A stretch of DNA of 64,000 nucleotides, from NCBI GenBank assembly GCA_965217115.1, contig OZ244239.1, positions 1,792,001 to 1,856,000 of the forward strand, given 5' to 3'. Made by a program: the position numbers and the translations under genes. Shown one piece after another: positions 17,222 to 45,910 of the stretch; positions within the stretch are counted from its first letter, which is position 1; each line of letters opens with the position of its first letter. The notes beneath the pieces are model-generated. The model was not told the DNA's origin. It was given only the letters and a program-made list of their open reading frames with translations, and searched no databases. Origin of the DNA: Bdellovibrionales bacterium (GTDB taxonomy: Bacteria > Bdellovibrionota > Bdellovibrionia > Bdellovibrionales > CAYMLA01).

Positions 17222-18499
17222 TCAAATAGTTATAGTTGCGGGAAACAATTCATCTATGTTTATTTTATAGGATTTTATACGATCGTTTAATGTACTCTTA
17301 GGCAGTCCCAATGCTGCGGCTGTTTGTCGCTGGTTTCCTCTGTTGGCTTTAAGGAATTTCAGGATCATTTTTTTCTCCATTTGCTTAATAATGGATAAGC
17401 CGTTCTTCTTATCAAATCCTTCTTTGAGTGATGGGGATTCGATGTTTTCTTTGAAGCATCTGTCAATCAATGAAGGAATGTGTTCTTTGAGGACACGTTT
17501 TTCCTTGTAAAGGGCTGAAGCCCTTAGAATCGTATTTTTTAACTCACGAATGTTTCCGGGCCAAGAGTGTTTTTTTAACTCTTCTATCGCGTCATGTGAA
17601 AAACAGGCGTGGTTATTTTTGCAAAATTGAAATAGCAGAGATTCAAAGTCCTCCATACGTTCGATCAATGATGGAGGCGTGATTTGTAGAATGGCTAAAC
17701 GGTAGTACAGATCTGCACGAAAAGTTCCCTGTTGTACTTTTTTCTGTAGATTCTGATGGGTGGCTGCGAGAATACGAGTGTCTGTTGTAATAGAATGATC
17801 GCTGCCGACGGGTTTGATTTCTTGGTTTTCAAGGGCTCTAAGAAGTTTTGCCTGTAGATTGGGAGAGAGATCACCTATTTCATCGAGAAAAAGAGTGCCG
17901 TTACGAGCCGTTTCAAAAGCTCCTTTGCGATCACCCGTGGCACCAGTGAAGCTTCCCCTAACATGACCAAAGAGTTCGCTTTCGATAAGAGACTCAGATA
18001 AGGCGCAGCAGTTGACGCTGATAAAAGGGCCTTTTTTTCTTGGAGAAAGACGGTGTATTTCATTGGCTAGAATATCTTTTCCTGTCCCAGATGGACCGAG
18101 AAGAAGAATGGAAAAATTATTATCAGCTAATCGTGGCAGGGAGAGTAGCTGCTCCTGCCATTTTTGATTGTGACTAGATAATTGACATTCGGGGAGTTTT
18201 CGAGTGTGAAAGGAGAGAGTTTGTTCTCCTATTTGTATAGAGTCTCCGTGGTGTAGGTGGGCCTCTAAAATTTGAGTTCCATTGACGTAGGTTCCTGTGG
18301 CAGAGCGAAGATCACGAATAATAAAACCCTGGGGTTTTGCCTCAATTCTCGCGTGCCTTGGAGAGACAGAGCTGTCTTCGTCAAAGGACAGTTGATTGAT
18401 GGGGTCTTGCCCGATGGTGAACAATTCAGAGATTGAGAGGCATTCTTTTTTTCTGTCCTGATTCCAGATGAGGACTGGGGTATTACTTTCTTTTTGCAT
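17222..18499 (-). CDS. FHA-domain sigma54-dependent transcriptional activator
   Basis: FHA (SPRH, S..GTYVNG), GPSGTGK, GSFTGA, LFLDEIG, WPGNIREL, Fis-type HTH. Confidence 0.92.
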   Translation of the reverse strand: MQKESNTPVLIWNQDRKKECLSISELFTIGQDPINQLSFDEDSSVSPRHARIEAKPQGFIIRDLRSATGTYVNGTQILEAHLHHGDSIQIGEQTLSFHTRKLPECQLSSHNQKWQEQLLSLPRLADNNFSILLLGPSGTGKDILANEIHRLSPRKKGPFISVNCCALSESLIESELFGHVRGSFTGATGDRKGAFETARNGTLFLDEIGDLSPNLQAKLLRALENQEIKPVGSDHSITTDTRILAATHQNLQKKVQQGTFRADLYYRLAILQITPPSLIERMEDFESLLFQFCKNNHACFSHDAIEELKKHSWPGNIRELKNTILRASALYKEKRVLKEHIPSLIDRCFKENIESPSLKEGFDKKNGLSIIKQMEKKMILKFLKANRGNQRQTAAALGLPKSTLNDRIKSYKINIDELFPATITI

Positions 18500-20116: not shown

Positions 20117-21814
20117 GTGGCTAAAAAAGTGAAAAAAACTATTCAAAAAAAATCGGTAAGAACAAAGAAAGCTTCATCTCGAGCAGTAAAAAATTCTTTG
20201 GAGAGGAAGTTTATCTTTGTGACGGGAGGAGTTGTATCCTCCATAGGTAAAGGTTTGGCGGCGGCGAGTCTAGCAACATTGCTAGAGGCGCGTGGGGTGA
20301 ATGTCACCATGATGAAATGTGACCCCTATATCAATGTGGACCCAGGGACGATGTCTCCTCTGCAACATGGAGAGGTTTATGTCACTGAGGATGGTGCGGA
20401 AACGGATTTGGATTTAGGTCATTATGAGAGATTTACATCGGCTCATTTGAGTCGAGCCAACAGTGTTAGCGCAGGGCAGGTTTATGAGAGTGTGATAGCT
20501 AAAGAGCGCCGTGGGGATTACTTGGGAGGAACAGTGCAGATAATTCCTCATATAACTAACGAGATTAAACGCTGTATTTGCAAGGCAAGCGAAGGGTTTG
20601 AAGTGATCATCGTGGAGATCGGCGGTACGGTAGGAGATATTGAAGGGTTGCCTTTTCTGGAAGCTATTCGACAGATGAGGGTGGATGTTGGTATTGAGAA
20701 TTCGCTTCTTATTCATGTAACCTATGTTCCCTATATAGCTGCGGCGGGAGAGTTGAAAAGTAAGCCTACGCAACATTCGGTTAAAGAGTTACAAAAAATT
20801 GGGTTAATTCCAGATTTTTTAGTTTGTCGCACAGAAAAAAAGATATCTAAAGATATTCGTAATAAAATAGGTCTTTTTTGTAACGTTAAAGTAGAGAATG
20901 TTATTGAGGCTGTAGATGCGACAACTATTTATGATGTGCCTTTGATGATGCACGATCAAGGTTTAGATATAAAAGTAACAAATAGATTGAACCTTAAAGT
21001 GAATAAACCTTCTTTGGCAGCTTGGAAAAAGATGGTCAATACGATTAAGAGCCCAAAAAATTCTCTGACCATTGGAATCATAGGTAAATATGTGGGGTTA
21101 AAGGAGAGCTATAAATCTCTACATGAGTCTCTTGTCCACGGAAGCATAGCTAATGAGGTAGAGATCAATATTGTGTATATAGATTCTGAAAAAATCAATA
21201 AGTCTAATGTGTCTCGTGCTTTAAAAGGTTTGCATGGAGTTCTTGTTCCAGGGGGATTTGGTGAGCGAGGTATTGAGGGAAAAATGATAGCTATAGGTTA
21301 TGCCCGTGAGAAGGAAATTCCATTCTTTGGAATTTGTCTAGGTATGCAGTTGGCTGCTATTGAGTTTGCTCGCAATGTGTGTGGTTTTAAAAAAGCTAAC
21401 AGTCGTGAGTTTTCTAAAACTCTTAAAGGGGAAAAGAGTTTTGTAATTGATTTTATGGAGGAACAAAAATCAGTTAAAGACAAAGGTGGAACTATGCGCT
21501 TAGGAGCTTATCCTTGTCATATTTCAGGAAAAACTCGCTTGTCCTCTATTTACAAAAACAAGGTGATTCATGAACGACATCGCCATCGTTTTGAGTTTAA
21601 TAATGATTATAAAGATATTTTTGCAAAAAATGGTATGTTAGCTTCAGGAATATGTCGAGAGAGAAATTTGGTGGAAGTCTTAGAGGTCAGTAAACATCCT
21701 TGGTTTGTGGGAGTGCAGTTTCATCCGGAGTTCAAATCTCGACCGACACAGCCACACCCATTATTTACTAGTTTTGTTAAAGCATCTTTAGCCAAGAAGA
21801 GAGGGCGTTTATGA
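20117..21814 (+). CDS. pyrG: CTP synthase
   Basis: GGVVSSIGKG, DLDLGHYER, GICLGMQ, QFHPEF. Confidence 0.97.
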   Translation: MAKKVKKTIQKKSVRTKKASSRAVKNSLERKFIFVTGGVVSSIGKGLAAASLATLLEARGVNVTMMKCDPYINVDPGTMSPLQHGEVYVTEDGAETDLDLGHYERFTSAHLSRANSVSAGQVYESVIAKERRGDYLGGTVQIIPHITNEIKRCICKASEGFEVIIVEIGGTVGDIEGLPFLEAIRQMRVDVGIENSLLIHVTYVPYIAAAGELKSKPTQHSVKELQKIGLIPDFLVCRTEKKISKDIRNKIGLFCNVKVENVIEAVDATTIYDVPLMMHDQGLDIKVTNRLNLKVNKPSLAAWKKMVNTIKSPKNSLTIGIIGKYVGLKESYKSLHESLVHGSIANEVEINIVYIDSEKINKSNVSRALKGLHGVLVPGGFGERGIEGKMIAIGYAREKEIPFFGICLGMQLAAIEFARNVCGFKKANSREFSKTLKGEKSFVIDFMEEQKSVKDKGGTMRLGAYPCHISGKTRLSSIYKNKVIHERHRHRFEFNNDYKDIFAKNGMLASGICRERNLVEVLEVSKHPWFVGVQFHPEFKSRPTQPHPLFTSFVKASLAKKRGRL

Positions 21815-22797
21815 AGAGTGAAAATATAAGGAAAGAGGCCATTCGAGTTTTAAAAATGGAGGCCGAGGGGGTTTTGTCTCTTATTGATCGGATTGATGAA
21901 AGCTTTGAAAAATCTGTTGAGATGATTTTAAATTGTAAAGGTAAGATTGTTGTTACAGGAATGGGAAAGTCAGGTCAAATTGGGCGTAAAATTTCCAGTA
22001 CAATGAGTTCGACAGGAACGTCGTCTGTGTTCATGCATCCAGCCGAGAGTGTACATGGAGATCTTGGTGTTATTAGCAATCAGGATCTAGTGATTGCTAT
22101 TAGCAACAGTGGTGAATCGTTGGAGCTTGATTACGTCGTGAAGTATGTTGTGCGTAAAGGAATTTCCTTGATTGCAATGACAGGTAATCCGGAGAGCACT
22201 TTGGGTCGGTCTAGTGATGTGGTTCTTAATATAGGTGTCGAAAAAGAGGCGTGCTCTTTGGGATTAGCTCCAACAACGAGTTCCACGGCGACATTGGCTA
22301 TGGGTGACGCATTGGCGATGACGGTCTTAAAGGCAAAGGGATTTCAAGAATCAGATTATGCTGAATTTCACCCTGGCGGAAGTTTAGGACGTCGCTTGCT
22401 AACACATGTGCAGGATGTAATGCATAGTAAAAGGGCGTTGCCATTAGTCCCTTTAGGGACACCCATGCGCGAGGTTTTTTCACTAATGACCTCTAAAGAG
22501 GTGAGGGGTGTTGCGGGAGTTGTTGATGCTCAAGGAGACTTGATTGGAATTGTCACTGATGGAGATGTGCGTCGGCTATTAGATAAGAAGGAAAATTCTT
22601 TTGATTGCAAGGTTGAAGAGATAATGGGACGTAATCCTAAAACCATCGATGTTCTTGAGATGGCAGAGAAGGCTTTGTTTATGATGGAGCAGTTTAAAAT
22701 ACTTCTTCTCTTTGTTGTGGACGGTAAGTCGTCGCAGCCAAGAAGTCCTGTGGGGATTTTGCATTTGCATGATTTGATTGATTCCAAAATACGGTGA
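21811..22797 (+). CDS. kdsD: Arabinose-5-phosphate isomerase (KpsF/GutQ; SIS + CBS domains)
   Basis: GMGKSG, HGDLG, APTTSST, FHPGGSLG. Confidence 0.95.
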   Translation: MKSENIRKEAIRVLKMEAEGVLSLIDRIDESFEKSVEMILNCKGKIVVTGMGKSGQIGRKISSTMSSTGTSSVFMHPAESVHGDLGVISNQDLVIAISNSGESLELDYVVKYVVRKGISLIAMTGNPESTLGRSSDVVLNIGVEKEACSLGLAPTTSSTATLAMGDALAMTVLKAKGFQESDYAEFHPGGSLGRRLLTHVQDVMHSKRALPLVPLGTPMREVFSLMTSKEVRGVAGVVDAQGDLIGIVTDGDVRRLLDKKENSFDCKVEEIMGRNPKTIDVLEMAEKALFMMEQFKILLLFVVDGKSSQPRSPVGILHLHDLIDSKIR

Positions 22798-22817
22798 TTG
22801 ATTTTGGCAGAGAAGGC

Positions 22818-22934
22818 GCTTTTTTAATGGACCTCCATTCTTTAGTTCAGACATGCGTTTGGCAGCGGCGCTCGCCTAAGGCGAGCATCGCACCAAGCCG
22901 AACTCACTAAAGAATAGAGGTCCATGAAAAAAGC
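22818..22934. repeat. 117-nt imperfect palindrome, copy 1
   Basis: GCTTTTTTAATGGACCTCCATTCTTTAGT...GCTCGCCT-A-AGGCGAGC...ACTAAAGAATAGAGGTCCATGAAAAAAGC. Confidence 0.9.
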
Positions 22935-22979
22935 TCTTTTTGAAAATCGCATGGGACTGGGGACAGCGGGGGGTAGAGA

Positions 22980-23154
22980 GGGAACAGCGAGGGGGACAGC
23001 GAGGGGAACAGCGAGGGGGACAGCGAGGGGGACAGCGAGGGGGACAGCGAGGGGGACAGCGAGGGGGACAGCGAGGGGGACAGCGAAGGGGACAGTGAAG
23101 GGGACAGTGAAGGGGACAGTGAAGGGAACAGTGAAGGGAACAGCGTGGGAACAG
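22980..23154 (+). repeat. G-rich 12-bp VNTR (GGGRACAGYGAR), ~15 units
   Basis: Counted 15 ACAG cores. Confidence 0.95.
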
Positions 23155-23404
23155 AAATAATCCTGATTTTACAGGAAAAAATGTTCTTAATGAATGTAAA
23201 GCCAAGTCTGAAGCCTGTAGTCTTGCAAGCACAACGATAATAGGAAGTGGTCTTATTTCTTGTGCCATTAAGAGCACTGCAAGAGTTGAGTAAATCTAAA
23301 ACTCTAGGTAAATAATCAAGCATTCCCCTTTGTAGAACGAAAGCTAGGGATTAACCGCTCAACGCTCCACAACTGGGATAGTTTTTAGCGTGACTCTAAA
23401 AGAA

Positions 23405-23698
23405 TTAGAGACATTCTTCTGGGGTCATCAATTTGTGCGTAAGAAGGAGGAATGATTTTTCCCTTGCATCTTCTTCTGACCTAAAACATCTAGCAAATGC
23501 CTGGCCATCATTAAGAGTAAGGGAAGCATAAACTATGCACGAAGGATCATTAGGTATACTTATATATTTTATCTTACTCTTGCAGATACTCCATTTATCA
23601 ACATCTTCTGATTCACAGCCTCCATTAGATTCAGCTAGGGTGGCTTCTCCAAATGAGAACATTAATCCGAGTACAAGCAGTGATAATGTCTTTTTCAT
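23405..23698 (-). CDS. Small secreted Cys-containing protein (array gene 1a)
   Basis: AGGAG RBS, MKKTLSLLVLGLMFSFGEATLA signal peptide, 5 Cys. Confidence 0.8.
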   Translation of the reverse strand: MKKTLSLLVLGLMFSFGEATLAESNGGCESEDVDKWSICKSKIKYISIPNDPSCIVYASLTLNDGQAFARCFRSEEDAREKSFLLLTHKLMTPEECL

Positions 23699-23929
23699 TT
23701 TTTTTCTCCTAATAATTGAGTATCGTTCTGTTTCCTTGGGAGATTAATTCTCCTAAATCTGACTGATACCGTTAATTTCTAAGGTTCTAGAGTACATATT
23801 CTATGCCATGGAGAAAATAGCTCAGACATCAATCTATCGGTAGTTGAGCTCTTTTGAGGTGTCTAGCCCCTAGCGTAGATTGTCAGTTTGGAGTTTTAAA
23901 AGAGGTTTTTCCTGGGTTCTTTCCCTTTT
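23699..23929 (-). promoter_or_regulatory. Conserved ~230-bp upstream/promoter module, repeated at 25827-26057 and 29357-29587
   Basis: Near-identical upstream of three array genes; contains RBS, TGGCAT-N5-ATGT (sigma54-like) and ACCGATAG (sigma28 -10-like). Confidence 0.6.
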
Positions 23930-23998
23930 TTGTGGATGGGAAATCGTCGCAGCCAAGAGATCTTGTGGGGATTTTGCATTTGTATGATTTGATTGATT
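23930..23998 (+). repeat. Duplicated 3' end of kdsD, copy 2 (with a 20-nt deletion at its end)
   Basis: TTGTGGATGGGAAATCGTCGCAGCCAAGA...GATTTGATTGATT matches ~22715-22783. Confidence 0.9.
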
Positions 23999-24012
23999 TT
24001 GGCAGAGAAGGC

Positions 24013-24129
24013 GCTTTTTTAATGGACCTCCATTCTTTAGTTCAGACATGCGTTTGGCAGCGGTGCTCGCCTAAGGCGAGCATCGCACCAAGCCGAACTC
24101 ACTAAAGAATGGAGGTCCATGAAAAAAGC
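24013..24129. repeat. 117-nt imperfect palindrome, copy 2
   Basis: Near-identical to 22818-22934. Confidence 0.9.
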
Positions 24130-24174
24130 TCTTTTTGAAAATCGCATGGGACTGGGGACAGCGGGGGGTAGAGA

Positions 24175-24287
24175 GGGAACAGCGTGGGAACAGCGAGGGG
24201 GACAGCGAAGGGGACAGCGTGGGGACAGCGAAGGGAACAGCGAAGGGGACAGTGAAGGGGACAGTGAAGGGAACAGCGTGGGAACAG
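24175..24287 (+). repeat. G-rich 12-bp VNTR, ~10 units (some 11-mers)
   Basis: Counted 10 ACAG cores. Confidence 0.9.
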
Positions 24288-24537
24288 AAATAGTCCTGAT
24301 TTTACAGAAAAAAATGTTCTTAATGAATGTAAAGCCAAGTCTGAAGCTTGTAGTCTTGCAAGCACAACGATAATAGGAAGTGGTCTTATTTCTTGTGCCG
24401 TTAAGAGCACTGCAAGAGATGAGTAAATCTAAAACTCTAGGTAAATAATCAAGCATTCCCCTTTGTAGAACGAAAGCTAGGGATTAACCGCTCAACGCTC
24501 CACAACTGGGATAGTTTTTAGCGTGACTCTAAAAGAA

Positions 24538-24828
24538 TTAGAGACATTCTTCTGGGGTCATCAATTTGTGCGTAAGGAGGAATGAATTTTCCCTTGCATC
24601 TTCTTCTGACCTAAAACATTTAGCAAATGTCTGGCCATCATTAAGAGTAAGGGAAGCATAAACTATGCACGAAGGATCATTAGGTATACTTATATATTTT
24701 ATCTTACTCTTACAGATACTCCATTTATCAACATCTTCTGATTCACAGCCTCCATTAGATTCAGCTAGGGTGGCTTCTCCAAATGAGAACATTAATCCGA
24801 GTACAAGCAGTGATAATGTCTTTTTCAT
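24538..24828 (-). CDS. Small secreted Cys-containing protein (array gene 1b, paralog of 23405-23698)
   Basis: Differs by 3 substitutions and one codon deletion. Confidence 0.8.
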   Translation of the reverse strand: MKKTLSLLVLGLMFSFGEATLAESNGGCESEDVDKWSICKSKIKYISIPNDPSCIVYASLTLNDGQTFAKCFRSEEDARENSFLLTHKLMTPEECL

Positions 24829-24916
24829 TTTTTTTCTCCTAATAATTGAGTATCGTTCTGTTTCATAAGTAGGCTATTTAATAATGAACCAATACTCATG
24901 TTCCAATAGATGAAGA

Positions 24917-24947
24917 AGGCAGGTTTTAGATAGTCTAAAACCTGCCT
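24917..24947 (-). terminator. Hairpin terminator downstream of array gene 2a
   Basis: AGGCAGGTTTTAGA-tag-TCTAAAACCTGCCT perfect stem. Confidence 0.75.
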
Positions 24948-24956
24948 ATGATTATT

Positions 24957-25826
24957 TTATTTTTTCCCTACTCTTGCAGCAGTCTTTTTGGGGTCTATCT
25001 TAGTTTGAGAGTTAGTTTTCTGGTTTACTACATTACGCACAACTCTTCCTTCTCCCTTAGCTAGATTAACTATCTTTTTTATAAGAGAAAGATCTCTAAA
25101 ACGTCGTTTAGCGAGGTGGTCCCGCCCTTCTTCATATAGTTCATTTATAATATTAGCATCAGAGTCACGAAATCTAGTCGATATACTCAGAAATCTCTCT
25201 ATTTGTGCCTCTGTTGGCTTTCCATCCACAAATAATTTGAAATACTCTTTCAATATATGCTCCCATACAGCATCTACTTCAACACGCTTTACACGATCGA
25301 TCTCAGTTAGAGCAGGCCAATTTTTTGGTGTTGTTTTAAACTCCTTCTCAGAATTCGTATTCACCATCACTTCTTGCGCTTCTGCTGCTAATCTATGCAT
25401 AATAAGAAACCTAAGTTTACGAAAGTTATGCGATATATCCAGAAATCTTCCCTTTTGTTCTATGTTTGGCGTTGTCATCAAAAATGATCTGAGATTCTCT
25501 TTCAATATATGCTCCCACCCAGCATCTACTTCAGCACGTCTTACACGATTGATCTTAGTTAGAGCGAGCCACTTTTCTGGTGTTGTTCCCAACTTGCTAA
25601 AGACTTCTTGTGCAAATTCTGACATTGCAGAAGTATAAAGCGCGCTCCCGTGGATATACTTAGCTCTTTCACTTCCGAAGAACGAAGAAAATACTGTTTT
25701 AGCCTCTCTCTCATTTGTTACTAGAACCTTATCTTGACCCTCGCCATATGGTATAGATACAGCTAGGGTGGATTCTCCAAATGAAAACATTAATCCGAGT
25801 ACAAGCAGTGATAATGTCTTTTTCAT
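24957..25826 (-). CDS. Secreted protein with internal repeat (array gene 2a)
   Basis: Same signal peptide as 1a/1b; TTP..W.ALT.I.RV.R.EVDA.WEHILKE occurs twice. Confidence 0.8.
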   Translation of the reverse strand: MKKTLSLLVLGLMFSFGESTLAVSIPYGEGQDKVLVTNEREAKTVFSSFFGSERAKYIHGSALYTSAMSEFAQEVFSKLGTTPEKWLALTKINRVRRAEVDAGWEHILKENLRSFLMTTPNIEQKGRFLDISHNFRKLRFLIMHRLAAEAQEVMVNTNSEKEFKTTPKNWPALTEIDRVKRVEVDAVWEHILKEYFKLFVDGKPTEAQIERFLSISTRFRDSDANIINELYEEGRDHLAKRRFRDLSLIKKIVNLAKGEGRVVRNVVNQKTNSQTKIDPKKTAARVGKK

Positions 25827-26057
25827 TTTTTTTCTCCTAATAATTGAGTATTGATCTATTTCCTTGGGAGATTAATTCTCCTAAATCTGACTAATACCGT
25901 TAATTTCTAAGGTTCTAGAGTACATATTCTATGCCATGGAGAAAACAGCTCAGACATCAATCTATCGGTAGTTGAGCTCTTTTGAGGTGTCTAGCCTCTA
26001 GCGTAAATTGTCAGTTTGGAGTTTTAAAAGAGGTTTTTCCTGGGTTCTTTTCCTTTT

Positions 26058-26140
26058 TTGTGGATGGGAAGTCGTCGCAGCCAAGAGATCTTGTGGGGAT
26101 TTTGCATTTGTATGATTTGATTGATTCCAAAATACGGTGA
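26058..26140 (+). repeat. Duplicated 3' end of kdsD, copy 3
   Basis: Matches through the stop codon (…CCAAAATACGGTGA). Confidence 0.9.
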
Positions 26141-26160
26141 TTGATTTTGGCAGAGAAGGC

Positions 26161-26277
26161 GCTTTTTTAATGGACCTCCATTCTTTAGTTCAGACATGCG
26201 TTTGGCAGCGATGCTCGCCTAAGGCGAGCATCGCACCAAGCCGAACTCACTAAAGAATAGAGGTCCATGAAAAAAGC
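26161..26277. repeat. 117-nt imperfect palindrome, copy 3
   Basis: Inner stem perfect here: GCGATGCTCGCCT-A-AGGCGAGCATCGC. Confidence 0.9.
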
Positions 26278-26322
26278 TCTTTTTGAAAATCGCATGGGAC
26301 TGGGGACAACGGGGGGTAGAGA

Positions 26323-26491
26323 GGGAACAGCGTAGGAACAGCGAAGGGGACAGTGAAGGGAACAGTGAAGGGAACAGCGTGGGAACAGCGAGGGGGACAG
26401 CGAAGGGGACAGCGAAGGGAACAGTGAAGGGAACAGTGAAGGGGACAGCGAAGGGAACAGTGAAGGGAACAGTGAAGGGGACAGCGAAGGG
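26323..26491 (+). repeat. G-rich 12-bp VNTR, ~14 units
   Basis: Counted 14 ACAG cores. Confidence 0.9.
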
Positions 26492-26657
26492 TGATTGATT
26501 TTGGTAGAGAAGGTACTTGTTACTTTAGTTACAAATATAGTGATCTCGAAGAGTATTGTTGAAAATGAGTTGACAAGTAATCGAGGTAGTTAGGAAAAGG
26601 GAACCCGCACATTCTCTATTGAACAAGTTCTGAACAAAGCCTCTAAACTACCGTATT

Positions 26658-28202
26658 TTAAGTTTCATTGAGAATATTTAATAGGATCTTTTTTTCAAAG
26701 CCGAATATATAAAATCTATGAAGCATTTTAAGGTAATCTTTTGATTGTTCTTTCTCCAAGGCCATTACCTTAAAAGAGTTAAACACATCTAAGAAATTCT
26801 TAGAGGCATTTATATCATCAAAAATATTTTTTAATATTGGGTATTGAGAAATTTTATCTACGTTGTTGAATTCATTTAAACCTGTTTTAGAAACTGCTGT
26901 TGATAAATATTCATACTCATTTTTATAAAATTTTACAATTTCATCTAATGTGTGTAAAAAAGATTGTTCAAATAAAATCAATTCTTGACGTAGTTCTTCC
27001 GTAGCTACTGTATTTCCTGACTTCTCTCCTAGCTCAATCTTTGCTTTAGTCGATTGAATTATGGATTCTAAGATAAACAGTGTCTCAAAATGTATAGACA
27101 TTATTTTATTTTCTGATTTTGAATTTTTTGGATAATGAAGCATTGGTGGCATAGGTTGATTTTTTTTAATAACAGTACTTGCTATTCTAATAACCTGTTT
27201 TCTTACCTTAAACCCGAAACCCTTAGTGTCGTGTCCAATTCTCCAAAACGCATGCCTAGTTGATTTAATTCCCCTTGTAATTTGATTCTTATATTCGTGA
27301 GGTATAAATAGAGATAAAACTCCACCAGAAACTCCAAACATCATACCTGCAATAGTGCCAGCTCCAGGAAACAATGTCGTTCCAACAACTCCAGCTGTAA
27401 CCATAGAAGTCACTAAAGTAACAAACTCACCAGTGGCAATTCTCTTTCTCCAAGCATTATACAGCCAAAGATTTCTTAATTCATGATTATGCCAAAGAAT
27501 CTTCATCATATTATTAAACACGACCTTAAGAACTCTCCAGTCATCTGCGGAATCAGCTGTGTGTAAAAAAATGCCATATTTAAGTGATCTTCCCAGCAAT
27601 GTCCCTAGCCCTTGAGCTTTCTGATAATCTGATTCATCTTCAATAAGCTCTACTGCCTCAGTATATAATTGCCCACCTAACTCCCAGCCAATAAAAGTGA
27701 CAAAAGTACTAATTCCTGCTTGTAAAAATTTTTTAAGCATTCCATTGGATGTTCCATTTTGTATCAGTGAATTGATAATTTGCAGTGGTTTTGCTGATAT
27801 TCCAGAGACCACTCCAGCTCCGATCAAACTACTCCATATTTCACCAGAATTGACAACATGTCCTGCCGCTTCTTTAATATGAGAAGCAAGAAGGTCCTTA
27901 TCAATTGTTTCAAGTGTTAAATTTGATTGTTCGACATGTTGTCTCACTAAATCAACACCAGTTAATATCATAATAAGCAATATGGCTTGGCCTTGATGGG
28001 CTAACACATTATTTGTATATCTGTTGCTCGCTCTTGTAGATTTACGAGCGGCCTTCTTAGTGAACCTTGCTGCTCTCCAACCACCATAATTCAGAGTAAT
28101 TTTTTCAAGAAAACTTTGACCCTTAGTTGGTGTGTGAATTTGAGCTTGGGACTGATGAGACAGTAAGGTAATAAAAATAAGTATCTTTATAATTATGTTC
28201 AT
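26658..28202 (-). CDS. Hypothetical exported protein with glycine-rich hydrophobic helices (array gene 3)
   Basis: 514 aa, GAGGGG RBS, signal peptide ending SQA, AGVVGTTLFPGAGTIAGMMFGVSGG segment. Confidence 0.8.
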   Translation of the reverse strand: MNIIIKILIFITLLSHQSQAQIHTPTKGQSFLEKITLNYGGWRAARFTKKAARKSTRASNRYTNNVLAHQGQAILLIMILTGVDLVRQHVEQSNLTLETIDKDLLASHIKEAAGHVVNSGEIWSSLIGAGVVSGISAKPLQIINSLIQNGTSNGMLKKFLQAGISTFVTFIGWELGGQLYTEAVELIEDESDYQKAQGLGTLLGRSLKYGIFLHTADSADDWRVLKVVFNNMMKILWHNHELRNLWLYNAWRKRIATGEFVTLVTSMVTAGVVGTTLFPGAGTIAGMMFGVSGGVLSLFIPHEYKNQITRGIKSTRHAFWRIGHDTKGFGFKVRKQVIRIASTVIKKNQPMPPMLHYPKNSKSENKIMSIHFETLFILESIIQSTKAKIELGEKSGNTVATEELRQELILFEQSFLHTLDEIVKFYKNEYEYLSTAVSKTGLNEFNNVDKISQYPILKNIFDDINASKNFLDVFNSFKVMALEKEQSKDYLKMLHRFYIFGFEKKILLNILNET

Positions 28203-28313: not shown

Positions 28314-29356
28314 TTATTTTTTCCCTACTCTTGCAGCAGTCTTTTTGGGGTCTATCTTAGTTTGAGAGTTAGTTTTCTGGTTTACTACATTACGCACAAC
28401 TCTTCCTTCTCCCTTAGCTAGATTAACTATCTTTTTTATAAGAGAAAGATCTCTAAAACGTCGTTTAGCGAGGTGTTTCCGCCCTTTTTCATATAGCTCA
28501 TCTATAATATTAGCGTCAGAGTCACGAAATCTAATCGACATATTCAGAAATTTCTCTACTTGTGCCTCTGTTGGCTTTCCATCCACAAATAATTTGAGAT
28601 TCTCTTTCAATATATGCTCCCATCCAGCATCTACTTCAACACGCTTTACACGATCGATCTCAGTTAGAGCAGGCCACTTTTTTGGTGTTGTTCCAAACTT
28701 ATCAAAGACTTTTTTTGCGAATTTTGACATTTCAGAAGAATAAAGCATGCTCCCGTGGATATCCTTAGCTAACTCACCTCCGAAGAACGAAGAAAACACT
28801 CTTTTAGCTTGCGCTATTCTCATTGTGCTGCAATACCAAACTCCTTCTCAGAATAATTCTCAGATTTCGTATTCACCATCACTTCTCCAAGTGATTTTTG
28901 CCCTTCTGCTACTAATCTATTCATAGTAAGAAAATTAGATTCACGAAAGTTATACGGCGATGTATTCAGAAATCTTCTCTTTTGTTCCATGTTTGGCCTT
29001 GTTCATCAAAAATGATCTGAGATTCTCTTTCAATATATGCTCCCACCCAGCATCTACTTCAGCACGCTTACACGATCGATCTCAGTTAGAGCGAGCCACT
29101 TTTCTGGTGTTGTTCCCAACTTACTAAAGACTTCTTGTGCAAATTCTGACATTGCAGAAGTATAAAGCGCGCTCCCGTGGATATACTTAGCTCTGTTACC
29201 TCCGAAGAACGAAGAAAATACGTTTTTAGCCTCTGCCTGATTTGTTACTAGAGCCTTGCCATATGGTATAGCAACTACACCTGGGGTGGGTTCTCCAAAT
29301 AAAGCTCCACCATAAAAGACTAATCCGAGTACAAGCAGTGATAATGTTTTTTTCAT
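28314..29356 (-). pseudogene. Frameshifted paralog of array gene 2a with two fuller repeats (array gene 2b); frameshifts may be sequencing errors
   Basis: ORFs 29054-29356 and 28314-28823 match the N- and C-terminal parts of 2a; several indels between ~28820 and 29070. Confidence 0.75.
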
Positions 29357-29587
29357 TTTTTTTCTCCTAATAATTGGGTATCGATCTATTTCCTTGGGAG
29401 ATTAATTCTCCTAAATCTGACTAATACCGTTAATTTCTAAGGTTCTAGAGTACATATTCTATGCCATGGAGAAAATAGCTCAGACATCAATCTATCGGTA
29501 GTTGAGCTCTTTTGAGGTGTCTAGCCCCTAGCGTAGATTGTCAGTTTGGAGTTTTAAAAGAGGTTTTTCCTGGGTTCTTTTCCTTTT

Positions 29588-29670
29588 TTGTGGATGGGAA
29601 ATCGTCGCAGCCAAGAGATCCTGTGGGGATTTTGCATTTGTATGATTTGATTGATTCCAAAATATGGTGA
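29588..29670 (+). repeat. Duplicated 3' end of kdsD, copy 4
   Basis: Matches ~22715-22797. Confidence 0.9.
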
Positions 29671-29690
29671 TTGATTTTGGCAGAGAAGGC

Positions 29691-29807
29691 GCTTTTTTAA
29701 TGAACCTCCATTCTTTAGTTCAGACATGCGTTTGGCAGCGGTGCTCGCCTAAGGCGAGCATCGCACCAAGCCGAACTCACTAAAGAATAAAGGTCCATGA
29801 AAAAAGC
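29691..29807. repeat. 117-nt imperfect palindrome, copy 4 (no VNTR follows)
   Basis: Near-identical to copy 1. Confidence 0.9.
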
Positions 29808-29859
29808 TCTTTTTGAAAATCGCATGGGACTGGGGACAGCGGGGGGAGGGGGTAGGCGG

Positions 29860-30012: not shown

Positions 30013-30495
30013 TTACTTGCAAATACCTCGTCTTCTAAGGTTTACAATTTTGTTTTTAAGGATTTTAGTTGCATCAGCTATCTCCTTAACGTATTCCCTC
30101 TGCACAAAAGGAATATCTCCAAATCCGATCTGGGCAATAGGTATTGGTGAAGAATCTCGCACCTGTTCTGTAACTGTTTCTCGGCCTCGTCCGAAGTGAC
30201 GTGTTTTACGATGATAAATACCAAGCTTATAGTCCCAATAGTCCAGAAAGAGCATCTTCTCTTCCGCGGTCATGACCAACAAAAACGGATGACTTATGAG
30301 AAGAATAGGGTCAATCTTCTCAGGCAACCCGCGAGTCCATGAATAGTCAATAAAGCAATCGACAGCAAGTTGAGTCCCAGGCTGCTTACCAGCAAGGCTT
30401 CTTTTTGTGTCAGCATTTAAAGACTGAATCCTTGTACCCATTCCCGAACAAGCAACAAAACTTAAGCTCAACAAGCACAGCATAATTATTTTCAT
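30013..30495 (-). CDS. Lipoprotein, hypothetical (array gene 4)
   Basis: MKIIMLCLLSLSFVACSG lipobox; AGGAG RBS. Confidence 0.78.
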   Translation of the reverse strand: MKIIMLCLLSLSFVACSGMGTRIQSLNADTKRSLAGKQPGTQLAVDCFIDYSWTRGLPEKIDPILLISHPFLLVMTAEEKMLFLDYWDYKLGIYHRKTRHFGRGRETVTEQVRDSSPIPIAQIGFGDIPFVQREYVKEIADATKILKNKIVNLRRRGICK

Positions 30496-30531
30496 AAACA
30501 AATCTCCTATTTATTTTTATTATCAATAAGT

Positions 30532-30558
30532 GTATCGGACTATTCTCGCTAAAGTTAA
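30532..30558 (-). promoter_or_regulatory. Putative sigma28 (FliA) promoter TTAA-N15-TCCGATAC
   Basis: Spacing matches TAAA-N15-GCCGATAA consensus; ~37 nt upstream of ATG. Confidence 0.55.
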
Positions 30559-30599
30559 GCTAGACTAGACTAAGCTAAACTAAACTAAACTAAACTAAA
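30555..30599. repeat. (CTAAA/CTAGA)n pentanucleotide microsatellite
   Basis: Read directly. Confidence 0.9.
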
Positions 30600-30634
30600 G
30601 GCGATTAAGGAGTCAGCTATTAGATAAATAGCTA

Positions 30635-30970
30635 TTAATCTATACACTCCACAAAGACCCTTTCGCCAGGTCTTATTATAACACTCTCGCCTTTATCTAA
30701 ATTAACAATACGGGTTGGCTTGCAAACAGGTAAGTGAGGATTTATATTACAAGGATCTACGATAGCTAGAACAGAGTTTCTTTTTCCGCAAGTTACTAAA
30801 GTTTCTTTTTCAATGCCTTGGAAAAAAAATGAGGGTTGTGTTAAAATAAATTTATCCTGGAAAGACGACGCGAGTTCCCTTTTATTAACCGTTTTAGATG
30901 TTGTTTTTTGCCTCACTCCAGAGCAGGCAACAAAACTTAAACTTAGCAGAGACAGGATAATTATTTTCAT
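30635..30970 (-). CDS. Lipoprotein, hypothetical (array gene 5)
   Basis: MKIIILSLLSLSFVACSG lipobox; AAGGA RBS. Confidence 0.78.
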   Translation of the reverse strand: MKIIILSLLSLSFVACSGVRQKTTSKTVNKRELASSFQDKFILTQPSFFFQGIEKETLVTCGKRNSVLAIVDPCNINPHLPVCKPTRIVNLDKGESVIIRPGERVFVECID

Positions 30971-31011
30971 AGTAAAATCCTTTCGTTTATATTAGTTAAT
31001 TGTAACAAACC

Positions 31012-31038
31012 TATCGGATTATTTAAGCTAAACTAAAC
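31012..31038 (-). promoter_or_regulatory. Putative sigma28 (FliA) promoter TTTA-N15-TCCGATAG
   Basis: Same arrangement as 30532-30558. Confidence 0.55.
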
Positions 31039-31066
31039 TAAACTAAACTAAACTAAACTAAACTAA
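31028..31066. repeat. (CTAAA)7+ microsatellite
   Basis: Read directly. Confidence 0.92.
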
Positions 31067-31181
31067 GATTGACTCTGATAATCTTGTTTAGCTGTTTCCC
31101 AGAAAGGGTTTGGAAGTAGTGTGAAGCATTTGGAAGCCTGTGAAGCTATAAAGGCCAATGAAAATAGTGGGTTAGTGTTCT

Positions 31182-31262
31182 GGCGGGCATTGCACCAAGT
31201 CGAACTTACTAAGGTCCATTAAAAAAGCTCTTTTTGAAAATGGCATGGGTTGGGAACAGAGG
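31182..31262 (+). repeat. Degenerate right half of the palindrome element plus its flank (copy 5)
   Basis: GGCGGGCATTGCACCAAGTCGAACTTACTAA-GGTCCATTAAAAAAGCTCTTTTTGAAAATGGCATGGG. Confidence 0.8.
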
Positions 31263-31426: not shown

Positions 31427-32191
31427 ATGAGAGAGAAAATGAAATTATTTTACAGTGCATTTAGATCAGTCCCTATTTTTTGCCTGTTGTGTGCCGTGAA
31501 TTCCTATGGAGCGGTGATTGAGTTTCCTGATTATGAGTTGGCCCCTGAGTCAGTGCTTCCTCTGTTTGATAAAGCAGTGAGTGTCCGTGATCGGCGTATT
31601 GTGAGTAGGGGTCGAATTGAGATGGGTATCTTTTCTGGTTTTTCATTGCTTGAGTCATTCTATAGTCAATACAGTGTTGGTGTTTCGTCGAGCTATCATT
31701 TTAATGAAATCAATGCTCTTCACGCTTCTTTTTTTTACTGGATACCAGGTTTAACTGAGCAAGCTCACTCGTTAAGAGAGAGGCATAATATTTTTCTAGA
31801 AAAAGCCCCGTCTCCAGAGAGTTACTTGACCTTAGAGTATCAGCACTCATCTTTTTATGGAAAAATGAGTATTTCTAAAAACTACGTCATAAACACTCAT
31901 ATCTATGGCCTACTTGGCGGGGGAGTGCAGCTTACTGGGGAGGCAACTTATCCAACGTTTAATTTTGGTTTGGGACAAAAGCTCTATTTCTCAAAATTAT
32001 TGGCATTGAGAGTTGATTTAAGAGGGGTTTTGTACAGTGGTCCCAATCCTCTCAAAGGACCTGCTTTTGGAGGTGAATCTAATAAGAGAAGGCCTCCACA
32101 TAGGGGATCTAGTAACTTAAGTTCAGAAGATTTTGAATCCCAGTTAATTTTTTCAACTCTTCTCTCTGTGGGTATGGTTTATCGTTTTTAG
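31427..32191 (+). CDS. Outer-membrane beta-barrel protein, GltA/GltB-like
   Basis: YHFNE, FYGKMS, GLGQK, C-terminal Phe; head of the Agl-Glt cluster. Confidence 0.75.
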   Translation: MREKMKLFYSAFRSVPIFCLLCAVNSYGAVIEFPDYELAPESVLPLFDKAVSVRDRRIVSRGRIEMGIFSGFSLLESFYSQYSVGVSSSYHFNEINALHASFFYWIPGLTEQAHSLRERHNIFLEKAPSPESYLTLEYQHSSFYGKMSISKNYVINTHIYGLLGGGVQLTGEATYPTFNFGLGQKLYFSKLLALRVDLRGVLYSGPNPLKGPAFGGESNKRRPPHRGSSNLSSEDFESQLIFSTLLSVGMVYRF

Positions 32192-44467: not shown

Positions 44468-45910
44468 ATGGCTGGTTTAAAACAATCTTTATCTCTTAAA
44501 CAATCATTGCGTATGACACCGCAATTGCAGCAGGCGATTAAGCTGCTGCAATTGTCACGTATGGAATTGTCAGAGGCAGTTCTTAAGGAGTTAGAAGAAA
44601 ATCCTGTTCTAGAAGAAACCTTAGAAAAGAGTGAGGGCTTATCAGATAAGCAGGAGAATAATAGTGATGAAGGAGACACTTCACCCGATGTTCCAGATTC
44701 TATGGAAGGGACTGATCAGGACCCCCGTAAGCAGGATGAATTTGAGTGGGAGACTTATTTAGAGAGTAATTACAAGCCCCCTTCTTCGTCAGGAGGAGGT
44801 AGCGAAGAGATAATGAATTATGAAAATATTATCTCCAGTGAACAGACATTGAATGAACATTTGATGTGGCAAGTGAAGATGTCTGGCTTTAATGAAGAAG
44901 AGGAGTACTTGGCAGGGTTGCTTGTCTCTTATATTGATGATGATGGTTACTTAAAAAGCCCAATAACTCAAATCGCAGAGGAAGAGCAGATAGACCCAGA
45001 AGAGTTGGAGAGCATGGTTCCATTTATTCATGAGTTTGACCCTCCAGGGGTGGGGGCTAGAAATCTTAAAGAGTGTCTTTTGGTTCAGGCAAAGCATTTA
45101 GAAGAGGACACCCATGACCTTGTTTATTTACTTAAAAATCACCTAAAAGATTTGGAAAAGAAAAATTATCCAGCGATTGCCAAGGCGATGGAGGTGGCCG
45201 TTGAGGATGTTGTGGCTATGTGTCAGATCATTTACTCCATGGACCCTAAACCAGGTCGTCAGTTTGTAACTCATGATACACATTATGTAACCCCCGATGT
45301 GTATGTTTATAAGGTGGGAGATGAGTATGTGGTTTCTCTTAATGAGGATGGGCTTCCTCGGTTAAAAGTATCGAACTTTTACAAAAACATGCTTCAAGGT
45401 GAGGAGTCTAAGGGGGAGACGAAAGATTATATTCAAGAGAAATTAAAATCGGCAGTTTGGTTGATTAAGTCGATCCATCAGAGACAACGTACAATTTACA
45501 AAGTAACCGAGAGTATAGTAAAGAAGCAGAATGATTTTTTTGAAAAGGGTTCTGCTCACATTAAACCGATGATTTTACGTGATGTGGCCAGCGATATTGG
45601 TATGCATGAATCGACGGTGAGTCGAGTGACAACGGCGAAGTATGTTCATACTCCCCAGGGGATCTATGAATTAAAATACTTCTTTAATTCAGCAATTAGT
45701 AAAACAGATGGTGATTCTTTAGCGAGTGAATCTGTAAAATTAAAGATTAAGGATTTAATAGCCAAAGAAGACACTAAGCATCCATTGTCTGATCAGAAAA
45801 TTGTGGATTTGCTAAAAGAAGATGGGCTAAAAATTGCTCGTCGTACGGTGGCTAAGTATCGGGATGTTTTAAAAATACTCCCCTCTAGTAAGCGCAAAAG
45901 ATACCTCTAG
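44468..45910 (+). CDS. rpoN: RNA polymerase sigma-54 factor
   Basis: TPQLQQAIKLLQL, HESTVSR, ARRTVAKYR RpoN box. Confidence 0.97.
   Translation: MAGLKQSLSLKQSLRMTPQLQQAIKLLQLSRMELSEAVLKELEENPVLEETLEKSEGLSDKQENNSDEGDTSPDVPDSMEGTDQDPRKQDEFEWETYLESNYKPPSSSGGGSEEIMNYENIISSEQTLNEHLMWQVKMSGFNEEEEYLAGLLVSYIDDDGYLKSPITQIAEEEQIDPEELESMVPFIHEFDPPGVGARNLKECLLVQAKHLEEDTHDLVYLLKNHLKDLEKKNYPAIAKAMEVAVEDVVAMCQIIYSMDPKPGRQFVTHDTHYVTPDVYVYKVGDEYVVSLNEDGLPRLKVSNFYKNMLQGEESKGETKDYIQEKLKSAVWLIKSIHQRQRTIYKVTESIVKKQNDFFEKGSAHIKPMILRDVASDIGMHESTVSRVTTAKYVHTPQGIYELKYFFNSAISKTDGDSLASESVKLKIKDLIAKEDTKHPLSDQKIVDLLKEDGLKIARRTVAKYRDVLKILPSSKRKRYL

Follow-up and report, generated by a model that had tools for sequence, protein, structure and literature searches.

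How does one export signal come to stand at the head of proteins whose mature parts have nothing in common? We met this question in a 64,000-nucleotide window of a Bdellovibrionales chromosome, in which three minus-strand open reading frames (23405-23698, 24538-24828 and 24957-25826; here genes 1a, 1b and 2a) all begin with MKKTLSLLVLGLMFSFGE(A/S)TLA. An earlier note on this DNA had proposed that a portable promoter-RBS-signal module is recombined onto different payloads at the predicted signal-peptide cleavage site. We analyzed the anatomy of the locus, the shared DNA and the gene bodies, and followed each shared element through the 2.17-Mb genome.

The genes lie in an 8.6-kb gap on a single 2.17-Mb chromosome contig, between a kpsF/gutQ-type sugar isomerase gene (21811-22797, plus strand; Pfam SIS 1e-28, CBS 3e-15) and a conserved right-hand neighbor that encodes an outer-membrane beta-barrel protein (31427-32191, plus strand; TIGR04565, 4.7e-26). 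Because kpsF and the orthologue of 31427-32191 are separated by only ~52-656 nt in 4/4 of the relatives that possess the locus (G001, G005, G008 and G021; tblastn synteny), the 8.6-kb array appears to be specific to this lineage; it holds orphan secreted-protein genes, is made up of dispersed repeats, namely R1, R2 and 12-nt tandem arrays, and is probably prone to recombination. Directly behind kpsF lies R1 (22798-22975, no strand assigned), a palindromic dispersed hairpin repeat with inverted arms of 34 nt that are 91% complementary. R1 gives 66 BLAST HSPs genome-wide and recurs locally at 23993-24170, 26141-26318 and 29671-29846, with a partial copy at 31182-31262. Adjoining R1 is a 12-nt tandem repeat (GGGGACAGCGAA-like) at 22944-23186 (no strand assigned; 23 registers, 12-nt spacing), with further arrays at 24161-24295 and 26333-26527.

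On the minus strand the array carries gene 1a, a 97-aa orphan (23405-23698, signal-coding part 23633-23698); gene 1b, of 96 aa (24538-24828); gene 2a, a 289-aa orphan (24957-25826, signal-coding part 25761-25826); an orphan gene of 514 aa that encodes a distinct signal peptide and has no Pfam, PHROG or NCBIfam match (26658-28202); gene 2b, a broken paralogue of 2a (28314-29356, with ORF pieces at 29054-29356, 28820-28990 and 28314-28823); and, in the region 30013-30970, two lipoprotein genes with unrelated bodies (30013-30501 and 30635-30970) that share a second 5' module. None of five array proteins gave a PHROG match. No recombinase was found within ~135 kb of the array, and the whole genome holds three tyrosine recombinases (PF00589).

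The four copies of the leader share one orientation. Over the 66 nt that encode the signal, genes 1a and 1b are 100% identical and gene 2a is 97% identical, and this stretch has no other occurrence in the 2.17-Mb genome outside the locus. What genes 1a, 1b and 2a have in common comprises 5'UTR sequence and ~75-78 nt of coding sequence, identical at 73/75 nt; in the nucleotide alignment the homology between genes 1 and 2a stops ~75-78 nt past the ATG (at ~23621-23626 in gene 1a), where identity drops over a few nucleotides from 97% to the random level. A rule-of-thumb script recognized the features of a Sec (SPase I) signal in MKK / TLSLLVLGLMFSF / GEATLA, with T at -3 and A at -1, and MKKTLSLLVLGLMFSFGEATLA contains no cysteine, so that the shared leader has no lipobox. 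By the -3/-1 rule of thumb, cleavage is likely to follow TLA (A22), and a site after SFG (G17) would fit equally well. The junction between shared and unshared sequence falls 0-3 codons behind the likely cleavage site.

These alignments bear out the core of the earlier note. Genes 1a, 1b and 2a do share upstream DNA and a leader (97-100% identical), and past TLA the bodies of genes 1 and 2 are unrelated; distant homology of their mature regions, one of the findings that the note had said would overturn its reading, was not seen, as BLASTP aligned nothing between them at E ≤ 100. The leader of 2a is also closer to that of gene 1 than to that of its paralogue 2b, as had been claimed, and nucleotide alignment confirmed this. 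The note had, however, let gene 2b share only ~12 codons, whereas we found its leader (29279-29356) homologous along its full length (..TTTGGAGAAyCCACCCyAGsTGTA..), with a 12-nt insertion and several substitutions. Likewise, the upstream DNA said to be shared by genes 1a and 1b is complete in gene 1a, but in gene 1b it amounts to just 36 nt (24829-24864), beyond which lies the 3' flank of gene 2a; the gene 2 flank and the 36-nt stretch are joined through a common TTTC.

Farther upstream, the shared DNA does not end at 23929, as first described, but continues, by way of a duplicated kpsF 3' end and R1, to ~24190-24290. The shared block thus comprises the leader, an element of ~205 nt that we term R2, a duplicate of the final ~95 nt of kpsF, and the R1 hairpin. 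The 5'UTR and R2 of gene 1a occupy 23699-23917 (minus strand), and the other local copies, 96-98% identical, lie at 25827-26044 (gene 2a) and 29357-29574 (gene 2b). The true kpsF end (22703-22797, plus strand) maps as the source of three downstream copies. One of these, at 23918-23992 (plus strand), carries a 20-nt deletion in the alignment and is fused directly to the far end of R2; the two others, at 26045-26140 and 29575-29670, are full-length and have the identical junction with R2. Identity over R2, the kpsF copy and R1 is 95-100% in each of the pairs 1a/2a, 1a/2b and 2a/2b, and all BLAST matches of the kpsF 3' end are local (4/4). The R2|kpsF-3' junction is the same in all three copies, which also carry the same derived differences from the true kpsF end, and this identity of junctions argues that the block spread by segmental duplication. 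The local copies would then have arisen by duplication of a ~0.65-kb block and not by the precise movement of a cassette.

The bodies behind the common leader differ in length (75 residues in gene 1, 267 in gene 2) and in predicted secondary structure. Gene 1b departs from 1a by four substitutions and one in-frame codon (3-nt) deletion. Gene 2a is predicted to be helical and contains an internal repeat of ~84 aa; gene 2b has one additional internal repeat and is broken by three TGA and one TAG codons within the match. Applying three read-supported indels to 2b gave a first ORF of at most 135 codons and did not reopen the frame. Identity between 2a and 2b falls to 62-75% over 25680-25790, a dip that reaches into the mature part, and for that stretch gene 1 cannot have been the donor.

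Database searches returned little beyond this genome. Gene 1 had homologues in 0/60 relatives at E ≤ 0.01, and gene 2a gave one weak match among them (3.3e-4), which is probably due to chance. A database of 5.8e9 proteins yielded own-genome matches only for genes 1 and 2a, and a HMMER search of 1.84e9 proteins yielded own-genome matches plus two repeat artefacts, P0005 and P0006, which we rejected as spurious since their scores add up across the perfect tandem repeats of CUB and TPR proteins. The payload proteins belong to no Pfam, PHROG or NCBIfam family and had no usable match in the protein Atlas. AlphaFold2 (AF2) single-sequence models of genes 1a and 2a were too poor (pLDDT 47.3 and 38.5) for fold searches to be informative. 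The mature part of gene 1 contains five cysteines and a predicted beta-alpha core. Its codon usage lies at the 5th-8th percentile of real genes, with a score between those of real genes and of antisense open frames; for gene 2a the score is 0.135, where 75-codon windows of real genes average 0.168. With pN/pS ~1 for 2a/2b, and three non-synonymous to one synonymous change between 1a and 1b, the bodies show no sign of purifying selection, so that their function as proteins is only putative. The leader probably belonged to gene 2 first, because gene 2 has two diverged leaders with that of gene 1 nested with 2a's, and because the gene 1 body has a low codon-usage score.

R2 has a history of its own. 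Beyond the locus it has 12 copies (110-224 nt, 71-93% identity), each pointing towards a start codon that lies 0-126 nt downstream, and the proteins behind them are mutually unrelated. Signal peptides head 10/12 of these proteins by heuristic and 11/12 by eye, compared with a background of 24-31% of 1667 long ORFs. The 3' boundary of R2 with unique DNA varies from copy to copy and falls before or at the start codon, never at the cleavage site; the recombination at cleavage sites envisaged for other copies therefore does not hold for R2, all 12 of whose junctions are of this kind, which is a result that the note itself had listed as counting against its reading. The wider claim of a portable promoter-RBS-signal module survives insofar as one 5' block heads two unrelated bodies and two other sets behave likewise, but its signal-coding part is local only. 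R2 has no terminal inverted repeats, and of R1 and R2 only R1 is palindromic, so that R2 lacks the end feature of a MITE. Across 60 relatives we found no R2 except for one 31-nt match in G007, and a degenerate 30-nt pattern of R2 had 0 matches in public metagenome contigs and genome contigs. Since the R2-linked M64 peptidase has no orthologue in 29/30 relatives, insertion of R2 before an old gene could not be shown.

The promoter ascribed to the module by the earlier note was not recognized in R2. Sigma-70-like sites numbered 0 on either strand, against 2.0 expected. A sigma-54-like TGGCAT-N5-ATGTA has the correct spacing and a poor -12 element: GGCAT and the spacing are invariant in 14/14 aligned R2 copies, and the -12 'GC' is present in 2/14. 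The genome encodes rpoN, and its 11 canonical sigma-54 sites read TGGCAY-N5-TTGCT, all with TTGCT. We rejected a sigma-28 site suggested by CCGATA in R2 and in the lipoprotein module, as CCGATA[AG] occurs 374 times against ~463 expected and lacks a consensus upstream; nor did the genome give a flagellin match. A candidate RNA element, Rfam RF02980 (freshwater-2), was also rejected, with 28 bits against a gathering threshold of 49.9 in three local 5'UTRs only, and the 13 other R2 loci scanned gave no match to it. RNAalifold predicted weak structure for R2/5'UTR (-10.4 kcal/mol, covariation term -0.57), and the single-sequence fold of the 5'UTR had z = -0.17. On the evidence of its copies and their setting, R2 appears to be a separate, genome-wide portable upstream element, with a presumed promoter or regulatory role for secreted-protein genes.

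The pattern of one signal before unrelated bodies recurs independently in two further leader modules. The genes at genome positions 2118840 and 2119900 share only RBS..SMA, ~70 nt that are 95% identical and end abruptly on both sides. At least six lipoprotein genes have a common signal plus ~20-28 residues; the module before the array genes at 30013-30501 and 30635-30970 consists of a (CTAAA)n tract (plus strand; ~30565-30600 and 31023-31070), a motif, an RBS and the signal MKII.L.LLSLSFVACSG, and this neighboring set carries a leader with a lipobox cysteine. In an all-ORF control, the only other sharers were frames within repeats, frames that overlap and, at 407-408 kb, a single pair that may be a frameshifted paralogue. 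Chimeric junctions between residues 48 and 200 were not found. Cases with the junction at the cleavage site number n = 1 at the locus and n = 3 genome-wide, in junction screens sensitive only to ~codons 12 to 30-45, which weakens the statistics. Several repeat families (R1, R2 and a further family of hairpins) combine as mosaics in the intergenic regions of this genome. A second array, between rlmN and hldA, resembles the kpsF array in that its repeat units begin in the terminal 70-95 nt of the adjoining housekeeping gene, and differs in the order of elements (kpsF copy|R2 in the kpsF array, hldA copy|R1 in the rlmN-hldA array).

The explanation that we favor, and hold to be somewhat more probable than not, is that of a repeat-built array in which one duplicated block came to head two unrelated bodies through a single fusion kept by selection, with R2 portable in its own right. 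The block [R1 - kpsF 3' copy - R2 - 5'UTR/RBS - signal-peptide codons] would have been copied by segmental duplication or unequal crossing-over, and would now head both copies of gene 1 and both of gene 2, of which 2b is broken. Since the signal-coding part exists at one locus only, a single illegitimate fusion suffices, in which a ~114-nt RBS-plus-leader patch (36 nt before the ATG to ~codon 25) would have been set onto a foreign body. We infer the order of events from the present layout, which on the gene strand reads R2-[patch]-2a-flank-[patch]-1b; loss of the DNA from one patch to the other would yield exactly the arrangement of gene 1a. The position of the junction just behind the signal most likely reflects selection rather than a site-specific mechanism, because only fusions with the whole signal and little foreign sequence would give an exported product.

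A special case of the favored explanation, doubtful at present, is that gene 1 arose de novo: a ~114-nt patch of gene 2 would have been copied behind the gene 2 terminator onto non-coding DNA, creating an exported tail of 75 residues that was later duplicated and set behind R2 by deletion. The layout 2a-flank-patch-1b agrees with this scenario, as do the failure to find a homologue of gene 1 anywhere searched, its codon score between real genes and antisense open frames, its AF2 single-sequence pLDDT of 47 and the excess of non-synonymous over synonymous changes (3:1) between its copies. Yet both copies keep the frame, even through the 3-nt deletion, the mature part has its five cysteines and predicted beta-alpha core, and genes this short give small statistical power. 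A little less probable still is a site-specific origin, in which cassettes [R1 - payload - R2 - housekeeping 3' copy], circular or excised, would integrate at the 3' end of kpsF or hldA by means of a recombinase acting in trans, with R1 or R2 as the site and the leader as a cassette end. Here direct repeats of a housekeeping 3' end bound the units at two separate arrays, and their start in the last 70-95 nt of the housekeeping gene at both is a regularity more in keeping with site-specific integration than with duplication at random; the hairpin of R1 is conserved, and the payloads are accessory orphans. Against such cassettes, the nearest recombinase is ~135 kb away and the genome has just three of the tyrosine type, the three kpsF copies with one junction and the same derived changes point to one event followed by copying, the junctions of R2 with unique DNA vary by copy, and it is kpsF copy|R2 that adjoin here but hldA copy|R1 at the other array.

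Two further explanations carry very little weight with us. Repeats could have been mis-joined in assembly, putting the leader on the wrong body, in a locus dense in 95-100% identical repeats and known from one sample only, whose contigs break at repeats; the array structure rests on one assembly, as the contigs of public short-read data are too short to reach across the repeats. But a 317-nt contig (23348-23664, 0 differences), from a sample that may itself have been the source of the assembly, runs from the gene 1 body across 32 nt of the leader, no joint is seen at 23632 or 25760, the ORFs of both fusions are intact and in frame, and an independent pair elsewhere shows the same pattern. Scarcely credible, and the least probable of all, is that genes 1 and 2 are old paralogues. 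In gene families of the conotoxin type the leader is conserved and the mature part hyper-diverged, and the pN/pS of ~1 or more in the bodies here and the locally hypervariable 5' end of the gene 2 body would agree with such a history. Against it stand the fall from 97% identity to random over a few nucleotides, the unlike lengths and predicted secondary structures of the bodies, and flanking non-coding DNA that is 95-100% identical, from which we conclude that the copies are young.

The repeat-built array that we favor has counterparts among known systems. The Borrelia erp/UHB (upstream homology box) system is described as one promoter/leader unit fused by recombination to bodies of many independent origins, with erp genes thought to be co-expressed through their shared upstream DNA (PMC10016077); in B. 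burgdorferi the erp genes comprise ospE, ospF and elp genes, the last named Elp (PMC12242104). Near-identical upstream DNA and leader codons before bodies of independent origin are common to Borrelia and to this locus. In Borrelia, however, the unit sits at allelic sites of cp32 prophage plasmids, and its leader is that of a lipoprotein and contains sorting residues, whereas the locus here is chromosomal, its shared signal has no lipobox, the array gave no phage-family match, and only two body families share the leader, R2 also standing alone before 12 other genes. For Mycoplasma vsp/vpma, the cited work describes clustered genes that conserve the 5' untranslated region and signal-peptide codons and are otherwise without significant homology (PMC2268961), and the same conserved 5'UTR and signal codons before unrelated coding sequence are found here. 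The leaders here lie on one strand, three with their own R2, and the nearest PF00589 recombinase is ~135 kb away, unlike in Mycoplasma vsp/vpma. Those loci work by site-specific inversion with a locus-encoded recombinase that moves a single promoter.

Neisseria Correia elements and REP/BIME mosaics are short, scattered intergenic repeats able to supply expression signals. The intergenic mosaics of several repeat families seen here are similar, but R2 differs in having no terminal inverted repeats, 12 copies that all face a gene start, and a variable 3' boundary. Like integron arrays and those of the CIME type, which grow by tandem accretion at the 3' end of a gene, the locus has accessory-gene units parted by direct repeats of a housekeeping end, with hairpins between; unlike them, it has no nearby integrase, its units carry their own R2 and are presumably not promoterless, and its three repeat junctions stand for one event. 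The principle was established earlier, in Borrelia and Mycoplasma, and this case adds breadth and detail rather than a new kind of system.

Speculatively, and with low confidence, this lineage may make new exported proteins by pasting a ~70-115-nt RBS-plus-signal patch or the ~205-nt R2 before arbitrary or new DNA, in hairpin-bounded arrays beside housekeeping genes; gene 1 would then have been born de novo behind the terminator of gene 2, and R2 would be a mobile expression adaptor of a secreted, possibly predation-related regulon. At this locus, where every junction can be read, one sees how a bacterium can make exported proteins of unrelated or very young sequences by reusing one front end, and gene 1 is a concrete candidate for the de novo birth of a secreted protein. 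If R2 is a shared promoter, transcripts would be expected to start ~10-15 nt behind TGGCATAGAATATGTA in all R2 copies. R2 defines a candidate regulon of ~15 genes, mostly for orphan secreted proteins together with hydrolases (M64 peptidase, glucosaminidase and alpha/beta hydrolase).

The source genome, that of a Bdellovibrionales bacterium, is a single contig of 2.17 Mb with a GC content of 39.6%. Between the sugar isomerase gene kpsF and an outer-membrane-protein gene (31427-32191) it carries an 8.6-kb stretch made up of repeats and orphan genes, here called the kpsF array. Of five relatives searched, four yielded the locus (G001 from the same family; G005, G008 and G021 from the same order). 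In all four, ~52-656 nt separate kpsF from the orthologue of 31427-32191 that follows it; as far as these sequences go, the array is lineage-specific. Its genes all lie on the minus strand and all have signal-peptide-like N-termini: the near-identical orphan copies 1a (23405-23698, 97 aa) and 1b (24538-24828, 96 aa), the unrelated orphan 2a (24957-25826, 289 aa), a gene of 514 aa (26658-28202), the broken paralogue 2b in three pieces (28314-29356), and two lipoprotein genes (30013-30501 and 30635-30970). Scans of each protein against its own subset of the Pfam, PHROGs and NCBIfam libraries gave no family above cut-off. The array does not stand out in GC content, and a neighbouring gene matches TIGR04565 ("OMP_myx_plus"), consistent with a Bdellovibrio-like label. 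No tyrosine recombinase lies closer than ~135 kb to the array.

The 66 nt encoding MKKTLSLLVLGLMFSFGEATLA are 100% identical between 1a and 1b and 97% identical in 2a; beyond these genes and a partial match in 2b (nt 31-66), no further copy exists anywhere in the genome. In a four-way nucleotide alignment, homology between gene 1 and gene 2a runs through ..CTAGCTG(A/T)ATCTA, ~78 nt past the ATG, and ends abruptly. The 2b leader is homologous over its full length, with a 12-nt insertion and several substitutions; the earlier note's count of only ~12 shared codons is an artefact of reading the protein without gaps. Two of its other observations are borne out: the 2a leader is nearer to gene 1 (73/75 nt) than to 2b, and the mature parts behind it are unrelated (BLASTP, no alignment at E <= 100). 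The shared leader is real and beyond chance. The -3/-1 rule, on which the predicted sites depend, fits cleavage after TLA and equally after SFG.

We next place the leader within a larger duplicated block, identified by alignment and by BLAST searches in which the region was compared with its own sequence and with the whole genome. Reading upstream from 1a, 2a and 2b, the 5' UTR is preceded by R2 (an element of ~205 nt), a copy of the kpsF 3' end, and R1 (a palindromic dispersed hairpin repeat). The kpsF piece copies the last ~95 nt of the gene (true end, 22703-22797) and abuts R2 directly. The R2/kpsF junction is the same in 3/3 copies, and all three kpsF copies have changes in common relative to the real kpsF end; therefore, this junction arose once and was then copied. 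Block identity is 95-100% in every pair by sliding window. The genes 2a and 2b dip to 62-75% identity over 25680-25790. Beyond R1, the blocks of 1a and 2a continue into a 12-nt tandem array and that of 2b into unique DNA. Upstream of 1b we found just 36 nt of the shared DNA before the ATG, then the 3' flank of gene 2a, joined via a shared TTTC. R1 itself (22798-22975 and ~20 other loci; 66 BLAST HSPs) is often found as tandem copies spaced 150-270 nt, as at 117.9-118.5 kb, 351.5-352.4 kb and 716.9-717.8 kb. The 12-nt arrays (22944-23186, 24161-24295 and 26333-26527; GGGGACAGCGAA-like, up to ~20 units) come immediately after R1 copies and give rise to long ORFs on both strands that are spurious.

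Read along the gene strand, the elements now stand as R2-(UTR36+leader)-2a-flank-(UTR36+leader)-1b, where UTR36 is the 36 nt upstream of the ATG. If the ~114-nt patches underwent homologous deletion with each other, the product would be R2-(UTR36+leader)-1, the exact arrangement of gene 1a, so that a single illegitimate fusion between a leader patch and a foreign body would suffice, with unit duplication accounting for the rest. We infer gene 2 to be the original owner of the leader, because gene 2 has two diverged leader versions with that of gene 1 nested with 2a's, and because 2a has near-normal codon usage compared with a low-scoring gene 1 body (5th-8th percentile among real genes; 88th-93rd among antisense open frames). 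Neither body shows a sign of purifying selection, with pN/pS of ~1.07 for 2a versus 2b, and three non-synonymous and one synonymous difference between 1a and 1b. No search returned a convincing homologue of either body; both are orphans, and genes 1 and 2 are young or fast-evolving. Gene 1 may have been born from non-coding DNA, although this is unproven. That the junction lies just behind the signal is best accounted for by selection in favour of fusions whose products would still be exported, export itself being predicted.

R2 also occurs outside the locus, as 12 substantial copies (one split by a ~190-nt insertion) and two short remnants, with 71-93% identity to the local copy. All 12 are oriented towards a start codon 0-126 nt downstream. 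The proteins behind them (87-609 aa) have no convincing mutual similarity and include an M64 peptidase, a glucosaminidase, an alpha/beta hydrolase, a DUF2145 protein and several orphans; the weakest copy precedes a cytoplasmic-looking HTH-DUF4423 protein. Signal peptides were predicted in 10/12 by a crude script and in 11/12 by eye, since the script missed one lipobox protein. With a background rate of 24-31% among 1667 ORFs that are 150 aa or longer, this enrichment has P ~1e-6 to 2e-5 for 11/12 (script) and ~2e-4 for 10/12 at 31% (hand estimate). The 3' boundary of R2 differs among copies: in most it is ..GAACGATAC, in three it is an internal AGGAGA then used as the RBS, and in one R2 extends through the ATG. 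The earlier note had proposed a portable promoter-RBS-signal module joined to its payloads at the cleavage site. This modular view is correct in part: one 5' block does stand on unrelated bodies, but none of the R2 junctions elsewhere in the genome falls at a cleavage site.

Searches of 60 relatives did not recover R2, and a pattern search of metagenome and genome collections gave no match. It has a sigma-54-like -24 element but a poor -12 element; we found no sigma-70-like promoter and no convincing RNA structure in it. The window holds both an FHA-domain sigma-54 activator gene (17222-18499) and rpoN (44468-45910). Canonical TGGCAY-N5-TTGCT sites number 11 in the genome, which gave no flagellin match. 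Several R2 copies have, immediately upstream, a perfect hairpin of another family, ~145 nt long (TCTAGAGTCTCTCCCAAAAGAATCCAG...; L002:129-275, L011:50-190, L012:395-535), with plant microRNA-like Rfam matches below threshold.

A second array, between rlmN and hldA (~913.5-920 kb; G000:C1:913500-920050), contains the same pieces in the order R1 hairpin, R2 and signal-peptide gene, plus copies of the hldA 3' end. The repeat units of both arrays begin in the terminal 70-95 nt of the adjacent housekeeping gene. Little independent evidence backs the assembly here: short-read contigs from four runs of one sample contain the kpsF array region, and one joins the gene 1 body to the leader; no public contig of that sample bridges the array repeats. 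Source-sample contigs also carry 1-nt and 7-nt indel variants inside 2b (29068, 29132 and 28828 in the window), which do not restore its reading frame and may reflect either strain variation or wrongly placed paralogous repeats.

We screened 843 signal-peptide-like ORFs for a common first 75 nt with an unrelated remainder, and identified three independent groups: genes 1 and 2 of the kpsF array, a tandem pair and a lipoprotein set. The tandem pair (2118840 and 2119900; 145 and 87 aa) has only ~70 nt in common, from the RBS to codons ..SPSMA (95% identical), with abrupt ends and unrelated sequence on both sides; R2 lies upstream of the second gene only. The lipoprotein set, including the 30013-30970 genes, shares a pentanucleotide tract, a motif, an RBS, the signal and ~20-28 further residues. 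In the array pair (30013-31090) these are a (CTAAA)n tract of 5-9 units on the plus strand, the AATAATCCGATA motif, an RBS and the signal MKII.L.LLSLSFVACSG before unrelated bodies; this front end recurs in at least four further genes (near 1402383, 2064142, 2067787 and 2139750). The tract could make the lipoprotein promoter phase-variable. An all-ORF control added only frames within repeats, frames that overlap each other and a pair at 407-408 kb, possibly a frameshifted paralogue. In the 97 pairs whose N-termini align, similarity either ends by residue 47 or extends beyond residue 200. The clustering of junctions behind the signal is only suggestive, because these screens detect junctions over a restricted range and the number of groups, three, is small.

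Among described cases, the erp gene set of Borrelia burgdorferi comes closest. The array also resembles the Mycoplasma vsp and vpma loci, which keep the 5' UTR and signal peptide before a remainder without homology (PMC2268961). The present leader-sharing genes differ in being chromosomal, without a lipobox or a nearby recombinase, and in that their upstream element R2 is also dispersed alone. Among the top titles listed for Bdellovibrio repeats, promoters and secreted proteins, none pointed to an R2-like element. Overall, the sharing of leaders over unrelated bodies was already known; R2 and the arrays are an interesting genome-wide extension of it, and the kpsF array leaves de novo gene birth as a possibility for gene 1.
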